Shown piece after piece: positions 11,763 to 63,974 of a DNA stretch of 64,000 nt. The stretch's first letter is position 1; the number at the start of each line of letters is the position of its first letter. A program made the position numbers and the translations under genes. Under the pieces are notes generated by a model. It had not been told where the DNA came from. It searched no databases and saw only the letters and a list, made by a program, of their open reading frames with translations. Source of the DNA: Escherichia coli (GTDB lineage: Bacteria; Pseudomonadota; Gammaproteobacteria; Enterobacterales; Enterobacteriaceae). Location of the stretch: NCBI RefSeq assembly GCF_017348835.2, contig NZ_CP071375.1; one strand, written 5' to 3'.

Positions 11763-12524
11763 ATGTCCAAGTCTGATGTTTTTCATCTCGGCCTCACTAA
11801 AAACGATTTACAAGGGGCTACGCTTGCCATCGTCCCTGGCGACCCGGATCGTGTGGAAAAGATCGCCGCGCTGATGGATAAGCCGGTTAAGCTGGCATCT
11901 CACCGCGAATTCACCACCTGGCGTGCAGAGCTGGATGGTAAACCTGTTATCGTCTGCTCTACCGGTATCGGCGGCCCGTCTACCTCTATTGCTGTTGAAG
12001 AGCTGGCACAGCTGGGCATTCGCACCTTCCTGCGTATCGGTACAACGGGCGCTATTCAGCCGCATATTAATGTGGGTGATGTCTTGGTTACCACGGCGTC
12101 TGTCCGTCTGGATGGCGCGAGCCTGCACTTCGCACCGCTGGAATTCCCGGCTGTCGCTGATTTCGAATGTACGACTGCGCTGGTTGAAGCTGCGAAATCC
12201 ATTGGCGCGACAACTCACGTTGGCGTGACAGCTTCTTCTGATACCTTCTACCCAGGCCAGGAACGTTACGATACTTACTCTGGTCGCGTAGTTCGTCACT
12301 TTAAAGGTTCTATGGAAGAGTGGCAGGCGATGGGCGTAATGAACTATGAAATGGAATCTGCAACCCTGCTGACCATGTGTGCAAGTCAGGGCCTGCGTGC
12401 CGGTATGGTAGCGGGTGTTATCGTTAACCGCACCCAGCAAGAGATCCCGAATGCTGAGACGATGAAACAAACTGAAAGCCAAGCGGTGAAAATCGTGGTG
12501 GAAGCGGCGCGTCGTCTGCTGTAA
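11763..12524 (+). CDS. udp: Uridine phosphorylase
   Basis: ORF track from TTG 11757; ATG at 11763 gives [11 protein letters not shown], 253 aa, recognised as Udp. Confidence 0.95.
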
Positions 12525-12543
12525 TTCTCTTCTCCTGTCTGAA

Positions 12544-12570
12544 GGCCGACGCGTTCGGCCTTTTGTATTT
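12544..12570 (+). terminator. Rho-independent terminator after udp
   Basis: Stem GGCCGACGC / GCGTTCGGCC followed by TTTTGTATTTTTG. Confidence 0.6.
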
Positions 12571-12664
12571 TTGCGTAGCGCCTCGCAGGAAATGCCTTTC
12601 CAACTGGACGTTTGTACAGCACAATTCTATTTTGTGCGGGTAAGTTGTTGCGTCAGGAGGCGTT

Positions 12665-14092
12665 GTGGATTTCTCAATCATGGTTTACGCAGTTATTGCG
12701 TTGGTGGGTGTGGCAATTGGCTGGCTGTTTGCCAGTTATCAACATGCGCAGCAAAAAGCCGAGCAATTAGCTGAACGTGAAGAGATGGTCGCGGAGTTAA
12801 GCGCGGCAAAACAACAAATTACCCAAAGCGAGCACTGGCGTGCAGAGTGCGAGTTACTCAATAACGAAGTGCGCAGCCTGCAAAGTATTAACACCTCTCT
12901 GGAGGCCGATCTGCGTGAAGTAACCACGCGGATGGAAGCCGCACAGCAACATGCTGACGATAAAATTCGCCAGATGATTAACAGCGAGCAGCGCCTCAGT
13001 GAGCAGTTTGAAAACCTCGCCAACCGTATTTTTGAGCACAGCAATCGCCGGGTTGATGAGCAAAACCGTCAGAGTCTGAACAGCCTGTTGTCGCCGCTAC
13101 GTGAACAACTGGACGGTTTCCGCCGTCAGGTTCAGGACAGCTTCGGTAAAGAAGCACAAGAACGCCATACCCTGACCCACGAAATTCGCAATCTCCAGCA
13201 ACTCAACGCGCAAATGGCCCAGGAAGCGATCAACCTGACGCGCGCGCTGAAAGGCGACAATAAAACCCAGGGCAACTGGGGCGAGGTAGTATTGACGCGG
13301 GTGCTGGAGGCTTCCGGTCTGCGTGAAGGGTATGAATATGAAACCCAGGTCAGCATCGAAAATGACGCCCGCTCGCGGATGCAGCCGGATGTCATCGTGC
13401 GGCTGCCGCAGGGAAAAGATGTGGTGATCGACGCCAAAATGACGCTGGTCGCCTATGAACGCTATTTTAACGCCGAAGACGACTACACCCGCGAAAGCGC
13501 GCTACAGGAACATATCGCGTCGGTGCGTAACCATATCCGTTTGCTGGGACGCAAAGATTATCAACAGCTGCCGGGGCTGCGAACTCTGGATTACGTGCTG
13601 ATGTTTATTCCCGTTGAACCCGCTTTTTTACTGGCGCTTGACCGCCAGCCGGAGCTGATCACCGAAGCGTTGAAAAACAATATCATGCTGGTTAGCCCGA
13701 CTACGCTGCTGGTGGCGCTGCGCACTATCGCCAACCTGTGGCGTTATGAGCATCAAAGCCGCAACGCCCAGCAAATCGCCGATCGTGCCAGCAAGCTGTA
13801 CGACAAGATGCGTTTGTTCATCGATGACATGTCCGCGATTGGTCAAAGTCTCGACAAAGCGCAGGATAACTATCGGCAGGCAATGAAAAAACTCTCTTCA
13901 GGGCGCGGAAATGTGCTGGCGCAGGCAGAAGCGTTTCGCGGTTTAGGAGTAGAAATTAAACGCGAGATTAATCCGGATTTGGCTGAACAGGCGGTGAGCC
14001 AGGATGAAGAGTATCGACTTCGGTCGGTTCCGGAGCAGCCGAATGATGAAGCTTATCAACGCGATGATGAATATAATCAGCAGTCGCGCTAG
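12665..14092 (+). CDS. rmuC: DNA recombination protein RmuC
   Basis: 475-aa ORF, N-terminal TM segment plus long coiled-coil, recognised as RmuC. Confidence 0.9.
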   Translation: MDFSIMVYAVIALVGVAIGWLFASYQHAQQKAEQLAEREEMVAELSAAKQQITQSEHWRAECELLNNEVRSLQSINTSLEADLREVTTRMEAAQQHADDKIRQMINSEQRLSEQFENLANRIFEHSNRRVDEQNRQSLNSLLSPLREQLDGFRRQVQDSFGKEAQERHTLTHEIRNLQQLNAQMAQEAINLTRALKGDNKTQGNWGEVVLTRVLEASGLREGYEYETQVSIENDARSRMQPDVIVRLPQGKDVVIDAKMTLVAYERYFNAEDDYTRESALQEHIASVRNHIRLLGRKDYQQLPGLRTLDYVLMFIPVEPAFLLALDRQPELITEALKNNIMLVSPTTLLVALRTIANLWRYEHQSRNAQQIADRASKLYDKMRLFIDDMSAIGQSLDKAQDNYRQAMKKLSSGRGNVLAQAEAFRGLGVEIKREINPDLAEQAVSQDEEYRLRSVPEQPNDEAYQRDDEYNQQSR

Positions 14093-57057: not shown

Positions 57058-58323
57058 ATGCTCACGAAAAAGAAATGGGCGTTATTTAGTCTATTAACAC
57101 TGTGTGGCGGTACAATTTATAAATTACCGTCGCTGAAAGATGCGTTTTATATCCCGATGCAGGAATATTTCCATTTGACCAATGGTCAAATTGGTAATGC
57201 TATGTCGGTAAACTCATTTGTTACCACAGTGGGCTTTTTTCTGTCTATTTATTTTGCCGATAAACTACCGCGCAGATACACCATGTCATTCTCACTCATT
57301 GCGACAGGATTACTGGGTGTTTATTTGACGACAATGCCGGGGTATTGGGGCATCCTCTTTGTCTGAGCGCTATTTGGCGTTACTTGCGACATGATGAACT
57401 GGCCGGTCTTGCTCAAGTCGGTAAGTCGATTGGGCAATAGCGAACAACAAGGTCGGTTGTTTGGCTTCTTCGAAACAGGGCGTGGCATTGTCGATACCGT
57501 GGTGGCATTTTCTGCGTTGGCAGTATTTACCTGGTTTGGCAGTGGCTTATTGGGTTTTAAAGCAGGCATCTGGTTCTATTCCCTTATTGTGATTGCCGTA
57601 GGCATTATTATTTTCTTTGTCCTGAATGACAAAGAAGAGGCACCGTCCGTTGAGGTGAAAAAAGAAGACGGAGCATCGCAAAACACCAGTATGACCTCGG
57701 TGCTGAGAGACAAAACTATCTGGCTTATCGCTTTCAACGTCTTCTTCGTTTACGCGGTTTACTGTGGCCTGACATTCTTCATTCCATTCCTGAAAAACAT
57801 CTATCTATTGCCCGTTGCGCTGGTGGGGGCTTACGGCATCATTAACCAATACTGTCTGAAAATGATTGGTGGACCGATTGGTGGCATGATTTCAGATAAG
57901 ATCCTGAAATCGCCAAGTAAATATCTATGCTACACCTTTATCATCAGTACCGCTGCGCTCGTACTGTTGATTATGCTGCCGCACGAAAGTATGCCGGTCT
58001 ATTTAGGGATGGCATGTACGCTGGGCTTTGGCGCGATAGTCTTTACACAGCGAGCCGTATTTTTTGCACCTATCGGCGAAGCAAAAATTGCTGAGAATAA
58101 AACAGGCGCGGCGATGGCGTTGGGTAGCTTTATTGGTTACGCCCCGGCGATGTTCTGCTTCAGTCTGTATGGCTACATTCTGGATTTAAATCCGGGGATT
58201 ATTGGCTACAAAATCGTGTTTGGCATTATGGCCTGCTTCGCATTCTGTGGTGCGGTGGTTTCCGTAATGCTGGTTAAGCGTATTAGCCAACGTAAGAAAG
58301 AGATGCTGGCGGCTGAAGCTTAA
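57058..58323 (+). pseudogene. yihN: MFS transporter yihN interrupted by an in-frame TGA at 57364-57366
   Basis: Two same-frame ORFs (102 aa ending ...GILFV-stop, then 310 aa from MMNWPVLL) separated by 24 nt that translate in frame (ALFGVTCD); together they reconstruct a 421-codon MFS transporter. Confidence 0.8.
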
Positions 58324-58328
58324 TTAAT

Positions 58329-58406
<78 letters not shown>

Positions 58407-58413
58407 TTTCACA

Positions 58414-59106
58414 TCAGAAGAAATACTTCGTCCCGATACGAATCTGGTTTTGCTCGCGGTGGTACGGTTCCACGTTGCGATCTAACCAGCGCAATTCAAT
58501 ATAGGGCAGCCAGTGCTCGTTAATGCGGTAACGGAAGGTGTTAGTGATTTCCCAGTGATGCTTCGTGCCATTGCTGCTATTGAAATCATTAATGTTATAA
58601 AAATAATGCGGCTCAAAGGTATATGAGAACTTATCGGTAATAATAAAGTTCCAGTAGTTGCCAATCTCGTAGCTGTCATTATTATCCAGATCACCGTTTA
58701 AATCGGTTGAGCTGTAGTTATTATGGTTAAAACGATTGCGCACTGTCAGGTTAAACCACGGAGTAAATTTGTAGTTAACATCCAGATAAACAGCACCACC
58801 GGAACCGGCGCTCTTATCATTAATTAAGCCACCGGGCTGGATGGTTAATTTATCGGTTGGTTTAAATAACGGATACCAGCCTTCAATTTCGTTATATCCA
58901 TGTTTTAGTTCATCTTCTCGCTGAAAGGTGTAGGTATTGGTTAACATAATACCCGCGCCCATATCGAAGTTATAACCCACACGTAGCATAACCTCGCCCT
59001 GATCGGAGGCGAGATTATATGCCTCCCTGTTTTCGACGTATGCGCCAGCGAATACTGAGGCAGAGGTCAGAGAAGATAATAAAATTATTGCATTAATATT
59101 TTTCAT
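58414..59106 (-). CDS. ompL: Outer membrane porin L
   Basis: ORF track 58414..59172; Met23 (MKNINAIILLSSLTSASVFA signal peptide) gives 230 aa; C-terminal aromatic YFF. Confidence 0.9.
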   Translation of the reverse strand: MKNINAIILLSSLTSASVFAGAYVENREAYNLASDQGEVMLRVGYNFDMGAGIMLTNTYTFQREDELKHGYNEIEGWYPLFKPTDKLTIQPGGLINDKSAGSGGAVYLDVNYKFTPWFNLTVRNRFNHNNYSSTDLNGDLDNNDSYEIGNYWNFIITDKFSYTFEPHYFYNINDFNSSNGTKHHWEITNTFRYRINEHWLPYIELRWLDRNVEPYHREQNQIRIGTKYFF

Positions 59107-59172
59107 AATAAGTCCATTTTTAAACGTAGGGAGGCCGCCACCCACCAGGATGGAAATAGCGGCTATTGACAT

Positions 59173-60056
59173 TTATAACGTTACGGAAGCCGTTTTTTCT
59201 TCTGTCGCCATCTCTTTATTTTTGCGTTGGTTGATTTCCTCAATAATCAACGCAAACCGTTTTTCATTGAGTGTGTAAAAGAATCCCATCGTCAATGCAG
59301 CAATAATTGCCAGTGCACAAGGCCAGATAAAAATGAGCTGACGCAAACCCTGTAATGTCGCATCACTTTGCGCGATGTTTGGAACATAACCGATTTGCGT
59401 CAGCATAATCCCTGGCAAGAAGCCAGCAAGTGCGGCAGAAATTTTACGAAAGAAGGTATAACCGGTATAAACAGAACCTTCGGCACGAATACCGGTTTTC
59501 CATTCACCGTAATCTACGGTATCTGGTACCAGTGCCCAGTTCAGGCTGTTTACAAAGGCCGTGCCAAAAAAGGCGACACAAGAGAACATGACGAAAGTGA
59601 AAGAGTTACTTCCCCAGAAATAATTCAGGATATCACCAACCGCCCATAGCACCATGCCAGCTAAATAAACCTGTTTTTTACCAAAACATTTTACAGTTAA
59701 TGGCACCAGTAATACGCCGATGAGGATGCATCCCATACTGAAGAATCCCATCCACGACAATAAATTAATATCATTCAGCACATACTGGGTGTAATAGACC
59801 TGAATCGCCAGTTTGATATTAAATGCCGCCAGGGTACACAAGTTAGCAATGCATAAAACCAGCAATGGCGGATTCCGAAATATCGCGCAAAATGATTTGA
59901 GAATACTGGCTTTATGTCCGGTTGGCGTTGTGTCCACATAATGCTCTTTGACGCCTCTGTAGCACAGCATCATAAAAATAAAGCCGCCAATGGAGAACAT
60001 AAGTGCCGCACAGGCATAACCGACGGTTGAGTCAGAAAAAAGCGACTGCAACGGAA
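59173..60056 (-). pseudogene. yihO: C-terminal ~294 codons of MFS (GPH family) transporter yihO; N-terminal ~170 codons absent, frame runs into IS629 end
   Basis: ORF-track product begins mid-protein (xQSLFSDSTVGYACAALMFSIGG...) with open frame upstream up to the IS inverted repeat at 60057; K-12 YihO is about 467 aa. Confidence 0.8.
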
Positions 60057-60098
60057 TGAACCGCCCCGGGTTTCCTGGAGAGTGTTTTATCTGTGAAC

Positions 60099-60986
60099 TC
60101 AGGCTGCCAGATCATTATTTCCGATGGAAGCATAATAAGCTTTTTCTGCTTCTGCCGGAGGAATATGGCCCAGCCTTTCCAGCAATCGTCGATTGTTATA
60201 CCAGTCCACCCACGTTAGTGTGGCCAGTTCCACTTCTGTCCGGTTTTTCCAGCTCTTACGGTGTATTACCTCCGCTTTGTAAAGACCATTGATGCTCTCA
60301 GCCATCGCGTTGTCATACGAGTCGCCAGTACTCCCTGTTGATGCCAGTAATCCGGCTTCCTTAAGCCGCTGCGTGTAGGCCAGCGATACATACTGAGAAC
60401 CTTTATCACTGTGATGGATTGTGCCGGACGGCCGACGGGCCCACAACGCCTGCTCCAGTGCATCCAGCACGAATGTTGTTTCCATGGATGATGAGACCTG
60501 CCATCCCACGATGTATCCGGCGAACACATCAATGATGAACGCCACATAAACGAAGCCCTGCCATGTGCTTACCCAGGTAAAATCAGCCACCCACAACTGG
60601 TCTGGACGTTCTGCCACGAACTGACGGTTTACGCGGTCGCATGCGGCAACGGCTTTCCGGCTGACGGTAGTGCGGACCTTTTTACCCCGGAGAACACCGG
60701 CAAGTCCCATAACTGCCATGAGACGTGCCACAGTGCATCTGGCCACTCTGATACCTTCCCGTAACAACTGACGCCAGACTTTACGCACACCGTATACCTG
60801 GTGATTTTCATCGTATACGCGCTGTATCTCTTTCTTCAGCCAGTCATCGTGCTGCGCACGGGCACTGCGTTTATCCGGATGATGTCGCTGTTGCTGACAA
60901 TGGTAATACGTTGACGGGGCAATATGCAGTTCGCTGCATACCGGTCCGCCCCCGTACTGCTCACGCAGCTTATCCAGCAGTGGCAT
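60099..60986 (-). CDS. IS629 transposase OrfB (DDE catalytic part)
   Basis: 295-aa ORF in the -1 frame relative to OrfA, overlapping its stop (AAAAAATAATG); DDE integrase-like (…WVADFTW…HSDKGSQY…). Confidence 0.9.
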   Translation of the reverse strand: MPLLDKLREQYGGGPVCSELHIAPSTYYHCQQQRHHPDKRSARAQHDDWLKKEIQRVYDENHQVYGVRKVWRQLLREGIRVARCTVARLMAVMGLAGVLRGKKVRTTVSRKAVAACDRVNRQFVAERPDQLWVADFTWVSTWQGFVYVAFIIDVFAGYIVGWQVSSSMETTFVLDALEQALWARRPSGTIHHSDKGSQYVSLAYTQRLKEAGLLASTGSTGDSYDNAMAESINGLYKAEVIHRKSWKNRTEVELATLTWVDWYNNRRLLERLGHIPPAEAEKAYYASIGNNDLAA

Positions 60987-61312
60987 TATTTTTTCCAGAG
61001 GCGGTCGAACTCCGCCTTCGCAAAATAAGCGGAAGCCTGGCGAAGGATATCGTTACTGCGGCGCAGTTCACGATTTTCACGTTCCAGCTCTTTCAGACGC
61101 TGACGTTCAGCGGTGGTGAGTCCACCATCACCACTCCCGGTATCCCGCTCATGCTGGCGAACCCAGACACGCAGAGTCTCCGGCGTACAGCCAATCTTTG
61201 GGGCAATGGAACAAATTGCCGCCCACTGTGAGTCATATTCATCCTGACTTTCCAGAACCATACGAATCGCCCGCTGACGGACTTCGGGGGAAAAACGAGT
61301 ATTTTTAGTCAT
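60986..61312 (-). CDS. IS629 transposase OrfA (HTH DNA-binding part)
   Basis: 108-aa [26 protein letters not shown]... with leucine-zipper-like C-terminus, typical IS3 OrfA. Confidence 0.9.
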
Positions 61313-61455
61313 CCTGTTTACCTCTTTCTCAGGGAGTTTAGTCTCCAGGATTTCCGGGGCGGTTCACATATCCATACCTGCCAGAGAGTTCATAAATATT
61401 TGACCAATATCATTTGAATCTATGGAGAGAAAAGTACCCTTGTCGGATCTTTAAA

Positions 61456-61535
61456 GAAAGCTCATTTACGCATCATTTTTTATTTTTGCGAGGCGTTTTC
61501 CAGATATGATGTAACAGTTGCAGTTATTATAAGTT
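61456..61535. repeat. Imperfect direct repeat, copy A (about 80 bp)
   Basis: GAAAGCTCATTTACGCATCATTTTTTATTTTTGCGAGGCGTTTTCCAGATATGATGTAACAGTTGCAGTTATTATAAGTT; about 75-80% identical to copy B at 61895. Confidence 0.6.
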
Positions 61536-61609
61536 CAAGTAAAACAGCCTTGTATTAATACCAGAATAAGGGCATCTGTTTTTTTATATTCAAGAATGAA
61601 AAATTTTTG

Positions 61610-61828
61610 TCATTCCTTATGCTCCTTACACTGATCATCAACACCAACTACCTCCCCCTTTTGCCTGCCTCCCTTTGCTTTACGTACCGGAAATTGCTGA
61701 CGTTCCAGATATTGCTCTACCGCTTCGCGTAAAATTGCAGATCGTGAAACCTTACGCCAGCCCCGAAGCTTGTTCAGCCGTTTAATTGCCTCTTCTGATA
61801 AATGAAGAAAAACCGTATTCATCGCCAT
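61610..61828 (-). CDS. Ribbon-helix-helix (CopG/Arc/MetJ-like) small DNA-binding protein, 72 aa; possibly YiiE-like
   Basis: ORF track 61610..61855; start at Met10 (MAMNTVFLHLSEEAIKRLNKLRGWRKVSRSAILREAVEQYLERQ) preceded by AAGGTGG RBS; beta-strand then two helices pattern of RHH fold; basic C-terminal tail. Confidence 0.7.
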   Translation of the reverse strand: MAMNTVFLHLSEEAIKRLNKLRGWRKVSRSAILREAVEQYLERQQFPVRKAKGGRQKGEVVGVDDQCKEHKE

Positions 61829-61894
61829 TACCACCACCTTACATATATTACTCATTAATGTATGTGCGAAAATTACGCCGGAAAATTAATTAAC

Positions 61895-61975
61895 GAAAGC
61901 GGATTTTTGCATGTTGTTTTGTTTTTGCGAGACGTTCTCCAGAAATAATAAGAGCGTTGCAGTTGTTTCATTTGT
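61895..61975. repeat. Imperfect direct repeat, copy B (about 80 bp), upstream of the RHH gene
   Basis: GAAAGCGGATTTTTGCATGTTGTTTTGTTTTTGCGAGACGTTCTCCAGAAATAATAAGAGCGTTGCAGTTGTTTCATTTGTT. Confidence 0.6.
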
Positions 61976-62331
61976 TACTCAAAAATGGTTTAGTTATCGC
62001 CCAGGATGAGTTATGGGTGCTACGAATATATTATATTCAGGGATATTTATTTGCATAATCTGAATGGTGTAGCCGAAAAACGTCAGCATCCTAACAGCAC
62101 CAGGATTTAAGGTGAAATTAATCTTCCATCACAGACCTGTCAGTACTGCCACCAACCGGTCTTTACTTGCTCATCGTTATAATTTTGTTGGTAACAGTTC
62201 GGGAAACAAGGAATTCCTTCCGGCCCCCCCGGTATCATCCGATAGCATTGACGTCAATCATCGGCTCGACGGTGAGTTTTTTTAATCGCATCATAGGGTG
62301 GCAACGTTCAGCACGATACGGGTCATAACAA

Positions 62332-62371
62332 AACTCCTGAGCAGCGGCACTATGCCGCTTTCACAGGAGTT
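62332..62371 (-). terminator. Long stem-loop about 130 bp downstream of the large minus-strand ORF, candidate terminator
   Basis: AACTCCTG-AGCAGCGGCA-cta-TGCCGCT-tt-CACAGGAGTT; on the minus strand followed by TTGT (weak U-tract). Confidence 0.4.
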
Positions 62372-62498
62372 CTGAATGCTGGTGCTTTCTGTATGGCTTC
62401 GCCATGACCCTCGCGGCTAAGTGCCTGCACACTTCTCTCTATATTTGATTTTTGCAATGCATTGGCCGAATTCTGATAATCCTAATGAGTTTTACTCT

Positions 62499-63974
62499 TC
62501 AGACTCCCATCCCTACGGTATACGAGTTAGATTCATGAATGAAATCGACATTTTTAAAAAACGAATCTTGTAAAACATCCGTGTTGATATTACCTTGCAA
62601 CCCAACATTAAATTTGTTAGAGACATGAAGAACTCGAATATCAAAAAGGTCTTTTAACATCATTACTTCTTCGGCTGTTAATGAATCGCAACTAAAATAT
62701 CCCTGTTGATCAAAAAGGTTTTCTATTTCTCCACCATCGGCGAGGCGTTTTTCAAGGAGTGTTTGCAACATCGAGTTGCCAAGGACAATGGATATAGTGC
62801 GATCTTTCGCAGATTTACACCCCATCACAACGGCAACATTCGTATCCCCCTCAGGAGTTTCATTTATCGCTGTCGCTAAAATGGTGGTCAAACACGCAAA
62901 CGGAACTGTATTTCTTTCGTGATTTAATTTATCTACCAGTTCATTCCATTTATCAAAAGCCGGACGATATTTGTTGCGCACAGAAATATCCGACTGGTTA
63001 AACAATTCAGCCATGCGATTTTTTATCATCTCGATATCCGGCGAACCAGAAAGACTTTGCGCATAATACGGTCCTGATGATGTTGCATACATTAAAGCCG
63101 AGCCCACACCTGTCGCCATGATGGGCGCAGCCACGGTTTTGGCAAGGGCGACGCTGCGATGGCTATGCGCTTCACAGGTTAAAGGAACATATTCCACTGA
63201 CTGCGGTAATTCCTTACATGCCTCCCTCATCATTGCGGTATGCTTTACAAACAACGGTTTTTCACTGCCAAAAAAAACCTTCTGCTTAATTGCACTAAGA
63301 AAACGCAAATCAAAAATGATTGTTTTTGGTTTATTATTTTTTGGCACATTTCCTATTATCCCGCTAAGAACCTTCCTTGCTGCATGGAGATTTTTTTGCA
63401 CAGCACATAACACAATTGACGAAGCCTTCTCTACTTCGTCATTGATTTTAATTTTAAAATCTGCATGATATACGTTGACGGGCAGTGCAAGTATATCTGG
63501 CCCTACATCTTTGGCTGAGTATTTATTGGTGATCGACGGCCGTGAATCCACGAGAAAACTTAGCTGCAAATTATGCTCTATATTACCAGCTGTTTTTGTG
63601 GTGTGATTAAACATAGAGATGCCACCTCTCATTCTTTCACACATATCCTCAACTTTTTCACTTCGTTCTTGTGGCAATTTGGCTTTAACGTTAATTTGAT
63701 GATTTTTACCCGTGCATTCCTTAACTACAAGGGGAATGTTATCTAAAGTGCCATACAGGCTAATAACGTCACCAGGATTTTTATCATGTAAGTAAGTTTG
63801 ATTAATACTTGAAGCATTCACAAAGAGGTCAATATTATAACTGTTTATAACTTCACCTACATCAAATGTGTAGTGCTTACTCTGGAGGCTGCCATCCTTA
63901 TTTAATTGTATATCAATCAATATATCCCCGGACTTTGTCACCATATCTTTGCCATAAACCATTTGCATAGCCAT
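62499..63974 (-). CDS. Putative CX5R P-loop phosphatase, phosphoinositide-phosphatase-like (INPP4 / SopB / IpgD-type); N-terminus probably beyond window edge
   Basis: 491-aa ORF with no in-frame stop between first ATG (63974) and window end; exact CKSAKDRT octapeptide at residues 386-393 (minus strand 62819..62796, read directly as TGT AAA TCT GCG AAA GAT CGC ACT); AT-rich composition; next to IS629. Confidence 0.6.
   Translation of the reverse strand: MAMQMVYGKDMVTKSGDILIDIQLNKDGSLQSKHYTFDVGEVINSYNIDLFVNASSINQTYLHDKNPGDVISLYGTLDNIPLVVKECTGKNHQINVKAKLPQERSEKVEDMCERMRGGISMFNHTTKTAGNIEHNLQLSFLVDSRPSITNKYSAKDVGPDILALPVNVYHADFKIKINDEVEKASSIVLCAVQKNLHAARKVLSGIIGNVPKNNKPKTIIFDLRFLSAIKQKVFFGSEKPLFVKHTAMMREACKELPQSVEYVPLTCEAHSHRSVALAKTVAAPIMATGVGSALMYATSSGPYYAQSLSGSPDIEMIKNRMAELFNQSDISVRNKYRPAFDKWNELVDKLNHERNTVPFACLTTILATAINETPEGDTNVAVVMGCKSAKDRTISIVLGNSMLQTLLEKRLADGGEIENLFDQQGYFSCDSLTAEEVMMLKDLFDIRVLHVSNKFNVGLQGNINTDVLQDSFFKNVDFIHESNSYTVGMGV

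Follow-up and report, generated by a model that had tools for sequence, protein, structure and literature searches.

The IS629-like element at positions 60057–61366 of the window (the whole stretch of 64,000 nt of Escherichia coli DNA analysed here) is one of two inverted copies that, in the deposited chromosome of E. coli PE164, bound a reversed segment of 17.3 kb. The arrangement very probably arose when two copies that had inserted independently, in opposite orientation, underwent homologous recombination. It is a known element with a known mechanism in a strain-specific instance, and the puzzling junction in yihO is fully explained as a standard IS-mediated inversion.

Structure of the IS629-like element

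The copy in the window, designated as copy 1, is an intact IS of 1310 bp from the IS3 family, group IS629/IS1203/IS3411, with the transposase coded on the minus strand (60057–61366). The terminal motif TGAACCGCCCCGG has exactly two matches in the window, at 60057–60069 (+) and 61354–61366 (−), against 0.1 matches expected from dinucleotide shuffles, and these two matches set the limits and the length of the element. A full-length IS with both inverted repeats and intact orfA and orfB had been read from the sequence alone; the motif is indeed present at both ends, and both ORFs are open. IRR (60057–60081, +) lies downstream of orfB and adjoins yihO, while IRL (61342–61366, −) lies upstream of orfA and adjoins a 5' stub of yiiF. 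When the ends were compared, 22 of the first 25 positions matched and the first 13 were perfect. The size of about 1.3 kb, the imperfect inverted repeats, and the 5'-TG...CA-3' ends are those of an IS3-family element.

The product of orfA (60986–61312, −) is 108 aa long and matches the N-terminal part of the IS3 transposase model of NCBIfam. The orfB frame (60099–60986, −; 295 aa from ATG) codes for the DDE transposase domain and scored 307.9 bits against NCBIfam NF033516 (IS3 transposase; cut-off 160). In RefSeq, orfA and orfB are annotated as one CDS for an IS3 family transposase with a programmed frameshift, and orfB is predicted to be expressed as an OrfAB fusion via a −1 frameshift. An A6 slippery run was found at 60989–60994, and the ALIL frameshift-stimulating pseudoknot that spans it was recognized at 60915–61031 (−) by Rfam RF01497 with 116.1 bits and an E value of 5.7e-31 (gathering score 50). 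A scan for promoters and terminators around copy 1 gave nothing exceeding the shuffled expectation.

Copy 1 has the triplet GAA on its left (60054–60056) and CAT on its right (61367–61369), so that it is not framed by a direct repeat, as the sequence-only reading had claimed. That reading had also left the breakpoint at yihO ambiguous across four nucleotides, which does not hold. Intact yihO continues from GAA with TAAACG and the IS starts with TGAACC, with only the T at 60057 in common. Four other copies of the IS begin with TGAACC behind different flanks, and the end of the element is therefore fixed at 60057. The proposed coincidence of TGAA with the coding of yihO (Phe-Ile) is true for the amino acids but not for the nucleotides, which are TTC ATT here and TTT ATT in intact yihO; the protein of the fragment reads ...RFIPLQS, that of intact YihO ...AFIPLQS.

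Genes flanking copy 1

Positions 58400–64000 are 100% identical over the full length to the chromosome of PE164 (pig, Nanjing; AC No. NZ_CP114128.1). Among 5,426 complete E. coli genomes, none but PE164 covers at least 80% of this region in one place. Copy 1 corresponds to PE164 record positions 4836090–4837399. In the RefSeq annotation of PE164, yihN (+), ompL (−), and a fragment of yihO without the N-terminus (−) lie to the left of it. To the right are yiiE, an AT-rich island, fabY, dtd, yihY, yihX, csqR, and yihV (all −), and beyond them yihU, yihT, and yihS (+).

The yihO fragment at 59173–60056 (−), supported by the ORF list, RefSeq, and comparison with the intact gene, represents the 3' 884 nt of yihO (nt 521–1404 of 1404), and its reading frame runs straight into the inverted repeat of copy 1, as had been described from the sequence. 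The 5' 523 nt of the gene are now 18.6 kb away. The triplet GAA at 60054–60056 (TTC in the orientation of the gene and the IS) is one of the two repeats of the 3-bp target duplication in yihO, and its partner is beside the second copy of the IS. Likewise, CAT at 61367–61369 (ATG in gene orientation) is one of the two repeats of the 3-bp target duplication in yiiF, with its partner also beside the second copy.

The right flank had been regarded as unrelated AT-rich DNA. Its G+C content is low (37–45%), but it is not unrelated: it is the 5' stub of yiiF (61367–61393, −), which comprises 27 nt from the start of the long, 81-codon form and is cut off from the remainder of the gene, followed by yiiE (61610–61828, −), which codes in RefSeq for a ribbon-helix-helix protein of the CopG family and is the first intact gene within the inverted segment. 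This DNA is normally 17 kb from yihO. The visible part of the inverted segment covers 61367–64000, and the segment runs past the window to record position 4818762.

At first sight, the truncated yihO and the AT-rich DNA next to it could represent an IS-mediated adjacent deletion or an acquisition of foreign DNA beside the IS. The AT-rich DNA, however, is the ordinary yiiE–fabY region, which most E. coli have, and nothing of the two genes is missing, since the 5' part of yihO and the remainder of yiiF are both found beside the second copy; this explanation therefore has a negligible probability.

Several observations were made on the neighbouring genes. In the MFS transporter gene yihN (57058–58323, +), an internal stop near 57367 leaves two ORFs, 57058–57366 and 57391–58323, and the gene is a pseudogene. 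The same defect is annotated in the close relative F2_81, and it therefore predates the IS events.

Between fabY and yiiE, the AT-rich island has an apparently intact ORF of 604 aa, which is coded at 62499–64000 (−) and continues at positions 12100–13914 of locus L002, with the family start Met at L002 13914. It carries CKSAKDRT, which we take to be identical to the CX5R P-loop of inositol polyphosphate 4-phosphatases and similar to the SopB/IpgD motif; the octapeptide is kept in a 73%-identical homologue. In RefSeq this ORF is split into a 304-aa 'transposase' and a pseudogene of a 'hypothetical protein', which looks like a mis-annotation. Its homologues are only 'hypothetical proteins' from Escherichia/Shigella or from unnamed metagenomes, and no match was obtained in Pfam, NCBIfam, PDB sequences, or PADLOC. 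An AlphaFold model from a 4-sequence alignment had a mean pLDDT of 36.6 and was unusable.

A gene of the TauE/SafE family, similar to sulfite exporters, is located outside the window between yihR and yihQ (L003 16903–17778 in PE164, L004 13466–14341 in F2_81). In K-12 there is presumably no gene between yihR and yihQ. The tauE-like gene is part of the sulfoquinovose cluster and may code for an exporter of the sulfonate end product.

Second copy with reciprocal flanks

The partner copy with reciprocal flanks, anticipated from the sequence alone, was found outside the window. Copy 2, also 1310 bp long, is located at PE164 record positions 4817452–4818761 (L003 11453–12762), and 17,328 bp separate it from copy 1. 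In the record, the two copies have their transposases on opposite strands and are therefore inverted. Copy 2 sits between the remainder of yiiF and the fragment of yihO without the C-terminus, in the context ...CTGCCCAT–IS–GAATAAACG..., with CAT on the yiiF side and GAA on the side of the yihO 5' part. In the orientation of the IS, copy 1 is preceded by ATG and followed by TTC (ATG-IS-TTC), and for copy 2 the two triplets change places (TTC-IS-ATG), so that the exchange is reciprocal. When the flanks of both copies are paired again, the 3-bp duplications TTC/TTC and ATG/ATG are recovered.

Copies 1 and 2 differ by two mismatches in 1310 bp, at IS positions 160 (T/G) and 893 (C/A). Copy 2 is identical to the copy on a PE164 plasmid, which has the states G-A at these positions, and T-A occurs in the copies near 670 kb of PE164 and 648 kb of F2_81. 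Since the same states occur in other copies from PE164 and F2_81, the two differences are, judged by these haplotypes, standing polymorphism among donor copies rather than new mutations. The crossover was not locatable from positions 160 and 893 with three extra copies sampled, because each of the two possible parental pairings, (T,C)+(G,A) and (T,A)+(G,C), has one haplotype absent from these three copies; each also has one haplotype seen elsewhere. Wherever the crossover fell, the original parental copies would have differed at both positions.

This bears on a one-step origin, in which the transposase of a single copy already resident in yihO or yiiF attacks the second of these sites within the same DNA molecule, by a replicative or one-ended reaction. 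Such a reaction would make the second copy and the inversion together and split the target triplet between the copies, and its product (a-IS-t' and a'-IS-t) is formally identical to the structure observed. Sister copies, however, are identical at formation, yet there are two differences here, both with states known from other copies of the lineage. At the divergence between PE164 and F2_81 (5 in 25,001 bp), about 0.26 new differences are expected per 1310 bp, and P is about 0.03 for two or more. The comparison of sister copies is suggestive rather than decisive, as later gene conversion could mimic the differences at 160 and 893. Elements of the IS3 family (IS911, IS2, IS3) transpose by copy-out-paste-in via a circular intermediate, which gives simple insertions and not replicative inversions of the Shapiro type. 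A one-step origin is thus very unlikely.

Ancestral gene order

Strain F2_81 (AC No. NZ_CP043542.1), a close relative of PE164, has intact yihO (1404 nt) and yiiF (243 nt). Its order is fdhE, yiiF, yiiE ... fabY ... yihV, yihU ... yihP, yihO, ompL, yihN, and it was taken as the usual arrangement; most of the other top matches to 58400–64000 also annotate yiiF beside yiiE. Relative to this order, the region from the 5' part of yihO through yiiE is reversed in PE164.

The empty sites were rebuilt by joining the halves of yihO with a single GAA and the halves of yiiF with a single CAT, and both resulting 120-nt sites match F2_81 exactly. As deposited, PE164 aligns to F2_81 in three blocks, of which the middle one of 17,328 bp is reversed. 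When both IS copies and one triplet each were removed and the 17,328-bp segment was re-inverted, PE164 was colinear with F2_81 across 25,001 bp, in which 5 positions mismatched and no gap was needed. The comparison with a close relative, suggested in the sequence-only reading, thereby gave the ancestral arrangement. That reading had offered deletion, inversion, or recombination between two IS copies; inversion by recombination stood, and deletion did not. The rearrangement is a pure inversion, with no DNA lost or acquired, and a junction to a deletion or a foreign island is ruled out by the gapless reconstruction. The inverted 17,328 bp carry yiiE, the AT-rich island, fabY, dtd, yihY, yihX, csqR, yihV, yihU, yihT, yihS, yihR, the tauE-like gene, yihQ, and yihP, up to the 5' part of yihO.

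Probable origin of the inversion

In the lineage of PE164, one IS629-like copy would have entered yihO after nt 523, duplicating TTC, and another would have entered yiiF behind nt 27 of its long form, where ATG was duplicated. They would then have been 17.3 kb apart in opposite orientation, each with an ordinary 3-bp duplication. Homologous recombination between them, presumably dependent on RecA of the host, would have flipped the 17,328 bp in between, with each copy retaining one flank of its own and acquiring one from the other. Under this recombination model, copy 1 would be recombined from the two original copies, those in yihO and yiiF, and it would join the 3' part of yihO to the yiiF stub and yiiE with no direct repeat because the flanks were exchanged. 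Recombination between inverted IS copies is a standard route to IS-bounded inversions (PMC5009759; PMC4173774).

When 300-bp queries were used for each of the two junctions, both were found in PE164 only, one of the 5,426 complete E. coli genomes, and for this reason both insertions and the inversion are probably recent and specific to the strain or to a narrow lineage. Intermediates with one insertion, or with both insertions but un-inverted, were not found with 300-bp junction queries among the same genomes, and the missing single-insertion intermediate is also what a one-step origin would leave.

The orientation of the 17.3-kb segment is taken entirely from the deposited assembly. If the segment were mis-oriented there, the insertions in PE164 would be simple ones, yihO::IS and yiiF::IS, both framed by a 3-bp duplication of their own, and the inversion would not be physical. 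The paper on PE164 mentions only Illumina NovaSeq reads and Unicycler (PMC12233904). Paired-end reads do not detect an inversion between inverted IS copies, since it brings no junction that was not there before: all four IS-flank junctions are the same in the inverted and the un-inverted state, and the segment cannot be oriented by short reads (PMC5009759). The occurrence of the arrangement in a single genome also fits an artefact. On the other hand, a closed chromosome of 5.03 Mb with about 32 IS copies can hardly have been reached unless long reads, which easily cross 1.3 kb, or some equivalent scaffolding were used. Reference-guided ordering would have given the common, un-inverted order, and the assembly kept both copies as distinct sequences with two differences. 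These points are indirect and not a direct proof, but they make mis-orientation unlikely, and the assembled orientation is probably the physical one. More generally, inversions of this kind cannot be validated by short reads alone.

Other IS copies in the lineage

With a query containing the IS, about 32 places were matched in the chromosome of PE164 and 28 in that of F2_81, while the median is 4 places per E. coli genome with any match, which suggests an expansion of the IS in the O108:H9 pig lineage. Insertion sequences are not mentioned in the paper on PE164 (PMC12233904). Two of the three other copies examined in PE164 and F2_81 are without matching duplications. One is at PE164 record positions 670206–671515 (L005), has TAC/AAG flanks, and adjoins a truncated thymidylate kinase gene; the other is at F2_81 record positions 648336–649645 (L007), between ygjR and ygjQ, with ATG/ATA flanks. 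These unmatched copies suggest that the IS has mediated more rearrangements or deletions in this lineage. On the PE164 plasmid, the copy (L006) lies within an IS2 remnant and has a clean 3-bp AAC/AAC duplication.

Two further matches to 58400–64000 (H2 and H3) cover its left half in two separate pieces, spread over 5.4 kb of the matching record; their IS3-family element presumably lies elsewhere in the yihM–yihO region.

Probable consequences for yihO and yiiF

In PE164, yihO is split after nt 523 of 1404. The gene is, as we assume, that of the predicted importer of sulfoquinovose in the yih sulfoglycolysis cluster. Because yihO is split, PE164 may be impaired in the uptake of sulfoquinovose. 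In PE164, yiiF is annotated as a 72-codon form; the insertion is directly before its ATG, and this ATG is the duplicated triplet. In the 81-codon form annotated in F2_81, the insertion is 27 nt inside the gene. The shorter coding sequence of yiiF is intact but severed from its upstream region. By the inversion, 15 genes would switch orientation relative to replication.

More speculatively, the segment could flip within a population as a switch that toggles sulfoquinovose uptake, with yihO and yiiF uncoupled from and recoupled to their promoters. We consider such a switch, or a one-step inversion by the IS3-family transposase in its place, highly improbable, and prefer two insertions followed by recombination. 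Where an intact IS has no target duplication, a partner copy with reciprocal flanks is worth looking for.

Comparison with known systems

In the practice of ISfinder, an isoform has at least about 95% nt identity to the named reference element. Copies 99.9% identical to copy 1 are widespread across E. coli. The IS629/IS1203/IS3411 group, known from Shigella sonnei and from E. coli O157:H7, O111, and O26, has the same length of 1310 bp, the same TGAACCGCCCCGG ends, and the same orfA/orfB with the A6 run and ALIL pseudoknot, as well as a 3-bp duplication and a high copy number. Copy 1 differs from one O157:H7 copy labelled in RefSeq as 'IS1203 family', to which it is 95.9% identical. IS629 sub-types are 4–5% apart, and IS1203 and IS3411 count as isoforms (PMC3271280); because the 95.9% identity falls within this published spread, 'IS629-like' is a fair name, which does not commit copy 1 to any one isoform.

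Target duplications of IS629 are 3–4 bp long, and matching duplications were reported at just 21 of 47 IS629 sites in four O157:H7 genomes (Rump et al. 2011; PMC3271280). Unmatched flanks as at copy 1 are thus common there too. The difference is that in PE164 the partner copy and the exact ancestral sites are identified, and the cause of the missing duplication is resolved. The inversion described in PMC7430833 was mediated by prophages and not by IS629.

The closest parallels are inversions between inverted IS copies in E. coli/Shigella, from long-term evolution (PMC4173774) and mutation-accumulation lines (PMC5009759). They have the same inverted bounding copies, likewise no gain or loss of sequence, and mismatched flanks at each copy. 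Unlike them, the event in PE164 covers only 17.3 kb of a single replichore and is so far known from one strain, and the underlying insertions are also strain-specific.
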